Source: a virus (lineage: Duplodnaviria > Heunggongvirae > Uroviricota > Caudoviricetes). Taken from it: a DNA stretch of 4,823 nt. Below the pieces are notes generated by a model. It ran no database searches and was not told the origin of the DNA. It worked only from the letters and a program-made list of their open reading frames with translations. The stretch is from IMG/VR virus record IMGVR_UViG_2695420579_000008; one strand, written 5' to 3'. Shown here in pieces: positions 562 to 939 of the stretch; the first letter of the stretch is position 1; every line of letters starts with the position of its first letter. A program made the translations under genes and the position numbers.

Positions 562-939
562 TCATTTTTTCCCTCCAAATACGATGCCCTCTACGTCTTT
601 GGAAGCTTTTTGTGATGACCACTCCTCTGAATCAGGTGATTTAATTAAAAATATTGTATCTCCATCAAAAATCGTATTTGTTCCGTAAAAATTCACATTT
701 GATAGATCACCACCAAAAACCCTCTGCCCACTCGAGGTAATTGCCTCACCTAATTTAGTAAAATTACCAGCAATAGATGATTTTCTTTTTCCACTTCTAT
801 TCAAAGTGGCTTTAATTACACCACCACCATCCTTAGAGTTAAATAATTGAATGTCCACTCCAGCAGTTGGTTGTATATATTTTGAAAGCTCTTTCTTGAA
901 CTTGTTAATATATTTATCTTTGTTTTCTTTGTTGGTCAT
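562..939 (-). CDS. Hypothetical protein (125 aa), Lys-rich N-terminus, Gly/Ser-rich body, no TM segment or signal peptide; unknown function
   Basis: ORF from the six-frame track, ATG start at 937-939 with a weak upstream purine tract. It lies 82 bp upstream of, and on the same strand as, the 138..479 ORF, so the two could be co-transcribed. AT-rich. No family recognised from memory. Confidence 0.45.
   Translation of the reverse strand: MTNKENKDKYINKFKKELSKYIQPTAGVDIQLFNSKDGGGVIKATLNRSGKRKSSIAGNFTKLGEAITSSGQRVFGGDLSNVNFYGTNTIFDGDTIFLIKSPDSEEWSSQKASKDVEGIVFGGKK

Follow-up and report, generated by a model that had tools for sequence, protein, structure and literature searches.

The described systems that come closest to the locus reported here are two-gene cassettes in which a soluble cytoplasmic protein is followed by a small polytopic membrane protein, as in the RexAB-type systems (lambda RexA/RexB, RexABpp of P. 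putida, Sbash gp30/31 and CarolAnn gp44/43). Of the two Rex components, the soluble protein acts as the trigger and the membrane protein is the effector that arrests growth (PMC12894663). A cytosolic and a small membrane component, found in defence or mobile-element hotspots, likewise make up Kiwa (KwaAB), Butters gp30/gp31 and the TM-effector modules of PADLOC. In the type V toxin-antitoxin pair GhoS/GhoT, too, one operon encodes a small soluble alpha/beta protein and, downstream of it, a small membrane protein; GhoT is a peptide of ~57 aa and GhoS is an RNase that cleaves the toxin mRNA.

The pair described here, gene A and gene B, resides on a 4,823-nt stretch of viral DNA (hereafter the window; IMG/VR record IMGVR_UViG_2695420579_000008), which covers part of a DLP12-like lambdoid prophage from E. 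coli or Shigella. It is organised as follows, with the basis of the assignment in brackets:

100-1100, no strand: AT-rich cargo island with genes A and B, 31-38% GC (composition profile)
138-939, minus strand: AT-rich two-gene cassette of A and B (window gene order)
138-565, minus strand: gene B, a pseudogene in the window, ATG at 565-563 (alignment with intact relatives)
540-541, no strand: 1-bp deletion of one C of a CC on the plus strand, in gene B codon 9 (alignment with NZ_CP028767)
562-565, minus strand: ATGA overlap of the gene A stop (564-562) with the gene B start (565-563) (sequence and RefSeq relatives)
562-939, minus strand: gene A, intact, encoding a 125-aa soluble basic alpha/beta protein (open reading frame, translation, family alignment and AlphaFold2)
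571-576, minus strand: Shine-Dalgarno GGAGGG of gene B, inside gene A codons G122-G123 (direct sequence reading)
948-950, minus strand: weak Shine-Dalgarno GGA of gene A, 9-11 nt 5' of the ATG (kept as GGA in other alleles)
976-981, minus strand: candidate -10 box TATACT, predicted, 36 nt 5' of the gene A ATG (cross-allele conservation only)
1204-1659, plus strand: ybcN/ninB (window gene order)
between ybcN/ninB and quuD, plus strand: ninE, ybcO, rusA and ylcG (window gene order)
2694-3077, plus strand: antiterminator gene quuD (window gene order)
3266-4348, minus strand: intact ompC/nmpC-type porin gene, downstream of quuD as in DLP12-like prophages

Against the low GC content of the A-B island, the flanking nin genes have 52-60% GC. 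Intact relatives of this prophage are integrated at a tRNA-Arg gene, and in these relatives RefSeq annotates the window porin as a 360-aa 'porin OmpC', the entry in the list of open reading frames extending to 4408 because of an upstream ATG.

Like RexAB, A-B is a two-gene prophage cassette with a soluble cytoplasmic protein ahead of a small polytopic membrane protein, and its antisense orientation, AT-rich composition and -10-like box predict that the lysogen can express it irrespective of lytic transcription. As judged from sequence, A-B is Rex-like in layout and not homologous to RexAB. Gene A was tried as a RexA homologue and gene B as a RexB homologue, and both were rejected, at hhalign probabilities of 0.04% against lambda RexA and 0.4% against lambda RexB. 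Gene B is predicted to have three TM helices, unlike RexB, which is usually described with four, and A-B lies between replication and nin genes rather than adjoining cI as in Rex. From KwaAB, Butters gp30/gp31 and the PADLOC TM-effector modules the pair differs in sizes and domain content, and neither A nor B has a significant match in PADLOC 2.0, PDC and HEC candidates included. Gene B is also unlike GhoT, as its products measure 125-143 aa and possess a conserved cytoplasmic head, and Pfam and NCBIfam return no toxin-antitoxin family for either gene. Judging from the contexts in which the pair is found, our preferred reading, to which we attach about even chances, is that A-B is a mobile two-gene defence module of the abortive-infection or exclusion type, in which a soluble sensor or regulator is joined to a membrane effector.

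Gene A is real and subject to strong purifying selection. It opens with an ATG, closes with a TGA and encodes 125 aa, exactly the sequence quoted in the original prediction, which lies on the minus strand at 562-939. The description given there of a soluble protein rich in Gly, Ser and Lys with a basic N-terminus is borne out by the composition (K 13.6%, G 12.0%, S 10.4%, N 7.2%) and by the 7 Lys versus 3 Asp/Glu among residues 1-21. Since the protein lacks any hydrophobic segment (the maximum Kyte-Doolittle mean over 19 residues is 0.43), it has neither a TM helix nor a signal peptide. It was also rightly said to belong to no recognisable family: there is no match in Pfam, NCBIfam or PADLOC families, and the sole family hit is PHROG 18061, annotated "unknown function" (E 9.3e-85, residues 1-125 of 125). 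It was further proposed that gene A might be spurious or fast-evolving, that is, an open frame that arose by chance in AT-rich non-coding DNA, for which the AT-rich surroundings, the missing family annotation and the weak Shine-Dalgarno, which indeed amounts to GGA at 950-948, could be taken to speak. This proposal is refuted and retains next to no probability. The frame is intact and the length 125 aa in all 25 enterobacterial loci inspected, comprising chromosomes and IMG/VR contigs, with not a single frameshift, and pairwise dN/dS among them is 0.07-0.09 (~0.08) at dS values of up to ~2. Moreover, homologues extend across phyla, with 111 representative clusters at E below 1e-3, and the predicted fold is confident. 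As to the weak ribosome-binding site, the GGA is itself conserved, along with a -10-like box. The protein of the window is identical to that of E. coli A7 and UPEC 536 (WP_000182282.1), and the two nucleotide differences that separate the window from A7 within gene A are both synonymous.

The regions 5' of divergent gene A alleles align only at the -10-like box (TATACT/TATGAT/TATAAT) and at the Shine-Dalgarno GGA, which suggests that the A-B pair has its own promoter. A generic promoter scan returned no convincing minus-strand promoter upstream of gene A and did not call the TATACT box.

The G-G-D/G-G-K-like repeats that had been read into gene A do not hold up as a repeat. Across 79 family members most such glycines are not conserved, the exceptions being G39 (99%) and G77 (70%). 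Within the enterobacterial group G122, G123 and K124 are invariant, but the C-terminal GGKK corresponds at the DNA level to the gene B Shine-Dalgarno (GGAGGG) and the spacer that follows it, and hence its conservation may reflect a constraint at the nucleotide rather than the protein level.

In gene B this GGAGGG is followed by five A and then by the ATG at 565-563, a spacing of 5 nt. The ATGA overlap of the gene A stop and the gene B start indicates that the two are translationally coupled, and the same 4-bp overlap is present in most homologous loci of other phyla. Gene A had been presented as the upstream member of a pair, and this arrangement proves to be general: pairing was seen in 14 of 14 genome loci in a scan of GTDB species genomes and in ~56 of 61 metagenome loci, the distant loci having been collected with an alignment of a 14-sequence subgroup of the gene A family. 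In the GTDB loci the gene downstream of A encodes 125-154 aa at a spacing of -8 to +45 nt, narrowing to -8 to +3 nt in 13 of them, most often as a 4-bp overlap; the one spacing exception (L025) has a frameshifted gene A. The hosts include Deltaproteobacteria, Acidobacteriota, Myxococcales, Betaproteobacteria and many Bacteroidota, and the pairing also occurs in Chryseobacterium and Mesorhizobium. The exceptions among the metagenome loci are contig ends, truncated A genes and one doubtful high-GC locus that was seen twice.

Intact gene B encodes 142 aa (WP_000608370.1, RefSeq), with a cytoplasmic N-terminal head of about 35-40 residues followed by three predicted TM helices. The gene B proteins are mutually homologous, sharing the head motif MKIGxIEGTPEEIK...G...Y..P and the three TM segments, and with dN/dS values of 0.07-0.19 gene B is under the same purifying selection as gene A. 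It matches PHROG 16940 ('unknown function', E 2e-74); PHROG 18061 and PHROG 16940 represent just the enterobacterial, phage-borne members of a family that is much wider. A search against PADLOC 2.0 gave only a non-significant match to a 4TM effector (E 0.17), and a Pfam scan of 17 gene B relatives gave only sub-threshold generic TM matches. In the window, the 1-bp deletion shifts the frame after codon 8 and leads to a stop after 15 codons, and the listed open reading frame at 138-479 (minus strand, GTG start, 113 aa) is an out-of-register remnant of the gene. Thus, the proposed partnership with a membrane protein stands for the relatives, but the partner is frameshifted in the window itself, which had been overlooked. 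Among 25 related loci gene B has its 142 aa in 22 and is cut to 15 aa in the window and in IMG/VR contig L042, which shares the 1-bp-deletion allele, while in IMG/VR contig L050 it is truncated differently and gene A is intact.

The 111 clusters of the gene A family, most of them with 120-135 aa, come from a profile search of 1.84 billion representative proteins. The family occurs in Pseudomonadota, Bacteroidota, Acidobacteriota and Myxococcota; in Enterobacteriaceae there are 13 clusters at 67-100% identity, the full-length ones having 122-125 aa. In the 79-member alignment Y10, G39, Q72, F84, G86, T87, N88, K100, W107 and D115 are the most conserved positions, K100 being invariant. From this alignment AlphaFold2 yields a model with a pLDDT of 92.1 and a pTM of 0.86; an earlier run on nine close homologues had reached a pLDDT of 58 and was unusable. 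The modelled protein starts with a helix (residues 4-19) and a three-stranded meander (27-35, 40-47, 52-60). After a short helix (63-70), a long conserved loop runs to F84-G86-T87-N88 and is followed by a hairpin (87-92, 95-100) that ends at K100 and by C-terminal helices (104-121) that bear W107 and D115. PDB sequence searches with the family profiles returned nothing meaningful, and a further profile homology search brought up 'hypothetical protein' entries only, without any new fusion. A Pfam scan of the 79 relatives gave one stray sub-threshold match and no antitoxin or DNA-binding family.

One variant dispenses with the membrane partner altogether. A 447-aa metagenomic protein consists of an A domain (residues 1 to ~120), an HNH nuclease domain (191-231, E 1.3e-12) and ~200 C-terminal residues of no recognised family; its gene occupies positions 246-1589 of 1.6-kb contigs L008 and L009 from two, possibly related, sequencing runs (Logan SRR22012404 and SRR22012406). 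No second architecture without a membrane protein was found in the gene A family, and in this one the nuclease takes the place of the membrane partner; gene A variants with N-terminal extensions precede three-TM proteins just as the others do. Such swapping of effectors is typical of the sensor domains of defence systems, and a role of gene A as sensor or regulator, which had been suggested from the start, fits both the architecture of the pair and the HNH fusion variant.

Lambdoid prophages that otherwise have little in common carry the A-B pair at one and the same place, always antisense to its neighbours: replication genes of the O/P, DnaB or DnaC types lie on one side of it and the nin region (NinB or DUF1367) on the other. 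A version of gene A with only ~30% identity, from Enterobacter and Citrobacter, sits in the same slot. Among 5426 complete E. coli genomes 48 (0.9%) have the module, always as a single copy. In one prophage (GCA_030132385.1, locus L002, 3665-5348 and 7118-8971), the interval between replication and nin genes also holds other genes, namely a colicin-like gene plus its immunity gene, and a DndB-like gene accompanied by an HNH gene, and this cargo suggests that the interval collects conflict genes.

A second slot is found on small plasmids, where a version of gene A with 42% identity lies directly after, and overlapping, rep in mobilizable plasmids of ~4.7 kb from Klebsiella, E. coli and Salmonella. 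As seen from assemblies and backbone DNA similarity, on which the plasmid context is based, the backbone of these A-B plasmids matches that of sister plasmids typed as Col(Ye4449). Plasmids of this type (NZ_CP053742, NZ_CP092261, AP028541, NZ_CP055165, NZ_CP110157, NZ_CP063292 and NZ_AP027883; loci L018-L021 and L125-L127) are mobilizable and 4.6-5.8 kb in size, and in the sister plasmids the post-rep slot is filled by an OLD/GajA/AriA-like ATPase-Toprim protein, by AbiU/AIPR-like proteins, by a ThsB-like TIR protein with a DUF4231 protein, by an acyltransferase_3 protein or by another small pair of a zinc-ribbon and a TM protein. On these very small plasmids the post-rep site looks like a hotspot for defence genes, and our literature searches found no paper on it in this capacity. 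In NZ_CP055165 (L021, 1600-2326) this last pair comprises an 89-aa CxxC...CxxC (zinc-ribbon-like) protein whose gene overlaps that of a 154-aa membrane protein; it has no PADLOC match and may be an analogous soluble-plus-TM module. A tblastn search of the INPHARED phages and PLSDB plasmids with gene A and its plasmid relative as queries gave no match, which limits the sampling.

The main rival to a defence function is that A-B is a toxin-antitoxin module that stabilises its carrier, B being a membrane-damaging toxin and A its antitoxin. Such modules typically place a small soluble gene first and let it overlap the small membrane gene that follows, as A-B does, the direct, overlapping position after rep is in keeping with a stabilising role, and a B gene that is broken next to an intact A, as in the window, L042 and L050, is what one would expect if B is costly. 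Yet gene A has no HTH, RHH or AbrB domain and belongs to no antitoxin family (type II antitoxin features, Phd included, were absent from it and its 79 relatives in Pfam and NCBIfam), and the plasmids that carry A-B already bear a RelE/NadS pair. That E. coli CV839-06 is viable with an IS1 in gene A and an intact gene B argues against A as a strictly essential antitoxin, although polarity could silence B. The HNH fusion would unite antitoxin and effector in one chain, which is unusual. We therefore consider an addiction module unlikely, with the proviso that many toxin-antitoxin modules also abort infection, so that the two readings overlap.

It is conceivable as well that A-B acts at the envelope as a superinfection exclusion system, in which B, aided by A, blocks the entry of phage or plasmid DNA without harm to the cell. 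A membrane protein borne by prophages and plasmids, and expected to be expressed in the lysogen, would suit this purpose, and acyltransferase_3 proteins, a class that can alter surface receptors, take the same slot in sister plasmids. However, most of the known injection blockers are single membrane proteins or lipoproteins, and a cytoplasmic partner that is obligate and has a conserved polar site would be better suited to the sensing of a signal. Nor does the HNH fusion variant contain any membrane part; we regard envelope exclusion as very unlikely.

Beyond these slots, the contexts of A-B are mixed. In an uncultured Bacteroides sp. (UMGS1534; L031, 2969-8919), the pair lies between the Type III mod and res genes, all on one strand, a gene A relative on a conjugative element adjoins genes for a DUF4238 protein and a caspase-like peptidase, and the Chryseobacterium copy lies in a prophage near a BstA_C gene. 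The neighbours of distant chromosomal copies are mostly housekeeping or ordinary metabolic genes, and among 105 neighbour proteins from 15 distant loci, counted without a background set, those clearly assigned to defence are concentrated in a few loci, L031 in particular. Defence-island association is thus seen in only a minority of loci. The many copies set among metabolic genes, together with the fact that no defence model matches A-B, could indicate a housekeeping or stress-related membrane function (as regulator or transporter accessory), or a part in lysis timing, that merely hitch-hikes on mobile elements. Such a function is difficult to square with the very patchy distribution of A-B within species, as in E. 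coli, and with its repeated appearance in variable cargo sites on prophages, on plasmids and on a conjugative element. Lysis is further disfavoured by the position of A-B: essD, rrrD and rz, which form the lysis cassette, are found past Q and the porin gene, whereas the pair precedes the nin genes and is on the other strand. Altogether a housekeeping or lysis-timing role seems distinctly unlikely to us. Holin/antiholin lysis genes were likewise rejected as candidates, as A-B is outside the cassette and antisense to the direction of the late genes.

The recurrence of A-B in variable cargo slots that elsewhere hold known defence genes is the pattern by which hotspot cargo is recognised. Since the pair travels together on prophages, small plasmids and in defence islands across phyla, gene A is probably one half of an anti-phage module that has yet to be described. 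Neither our title and abstract searches of the literature, which included work on prophage defence hotspots, nor PADLOC 2.0 contained the pair, and the RefSeq accessions led to no publication; the defence catalogues covered run to 2023, and the pair may already have been named.

How might such a defence module operate? A and B would be transcribed from their own promoter, antisense to the early operon of the phage, and would therefore be made in the lysogen, where translational coupling would ensure that both are produced together. Gene A, predicted to be a compact alpha/beta protein with a polar cluster of Y10, Q72, T87, N88, K100, W107 and D115, could sense or relay a cue of infection and so control gene B, probably through the ~35-residue cytoplasmic head of the latter. 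Gene B, as a putative three-helix effector in the inner membrane, might then depolarise or permeabilise the membrane or block the infection in some other way.

A more far-reaching and tentative proposal, which we consider possible rather than probable, is that A-B represents an immune module of several phyla in which A is a sensor of new fold, with a site formed by the invariant Lys100 and T87/N88/W107/D115, that is wired either to a three-helix effector or to an HNH nuclease, and that the Col(Ye4449)-type plasmids and the replication-nin junction are interchangeable slots for defence cargo through which it spreads.

Should A-B protect against phage, a compact system of ~0.8 kb with an unrecognised sensor fold would join the catalogue of bacterial immunity, the intact copy of E. 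coli 536, ECP_RS05855 with ECP_RS05850, would offer a defined test case, and two places could be mined for further systems, the lambdoid replication-nin junction and the post-rep site of Col(Ye4449)-type plasmids. Whatever its function, the gene A family deserves a name, as it comprises at least 111 sequence clusters across several phyla without annotation. For the present, A-B is a candidate for a new two-gene family of defence or addiction, of the kind that joins a soluble sensor of unrecognised fold to a membrane effector.

For the window itself, gene A is genuine and gene B is a pseudogene. At the left end, bases 1-30 match the terminus of an annotated IS1A in the corresponding locus of E. 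coli CV839-06 (L124), and bases 4791-4823 are presumably the opposite end of an IS1, only their core matching L124. Both ends of the window thus appear to be terminal inverted-repeat ends of IS1 elements whose bodies lie outside, so that the prophage segment is bracketed by two IS1. Bracketing of this kind is typical of Shigella or of IS-rich E. coli. With gene B frameshifted and the prophage riddled with IS1, the A-B module is probably inactive here, and gene A of the window is probably an intact orphan of a dead module in an IS1-flanked, decaying DLP12-like prophage. In CV839-06 (L124, 3668-4435) an IS1A has inserted into gene A itself, leaving an N-terminal stub of 49 aa next to an intact gene B.

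Scans of the window for Rfam families and tRNAs were empty. The AT-rich stretch 5' of the porin gene contains an assembly gap, a run of 96 N at 4597-4692. The quuD-porin interval has two GC-rich hairpins, ggggcgttgcaacgcccc at 3108-3128 and gggaggcaaagcctccc at 3200-3245, the latter flanked by aacatat/atatgtt; both are likely terminators, perhaps belonging to a Q-dependent tR' region and to the porin gene, respectively.
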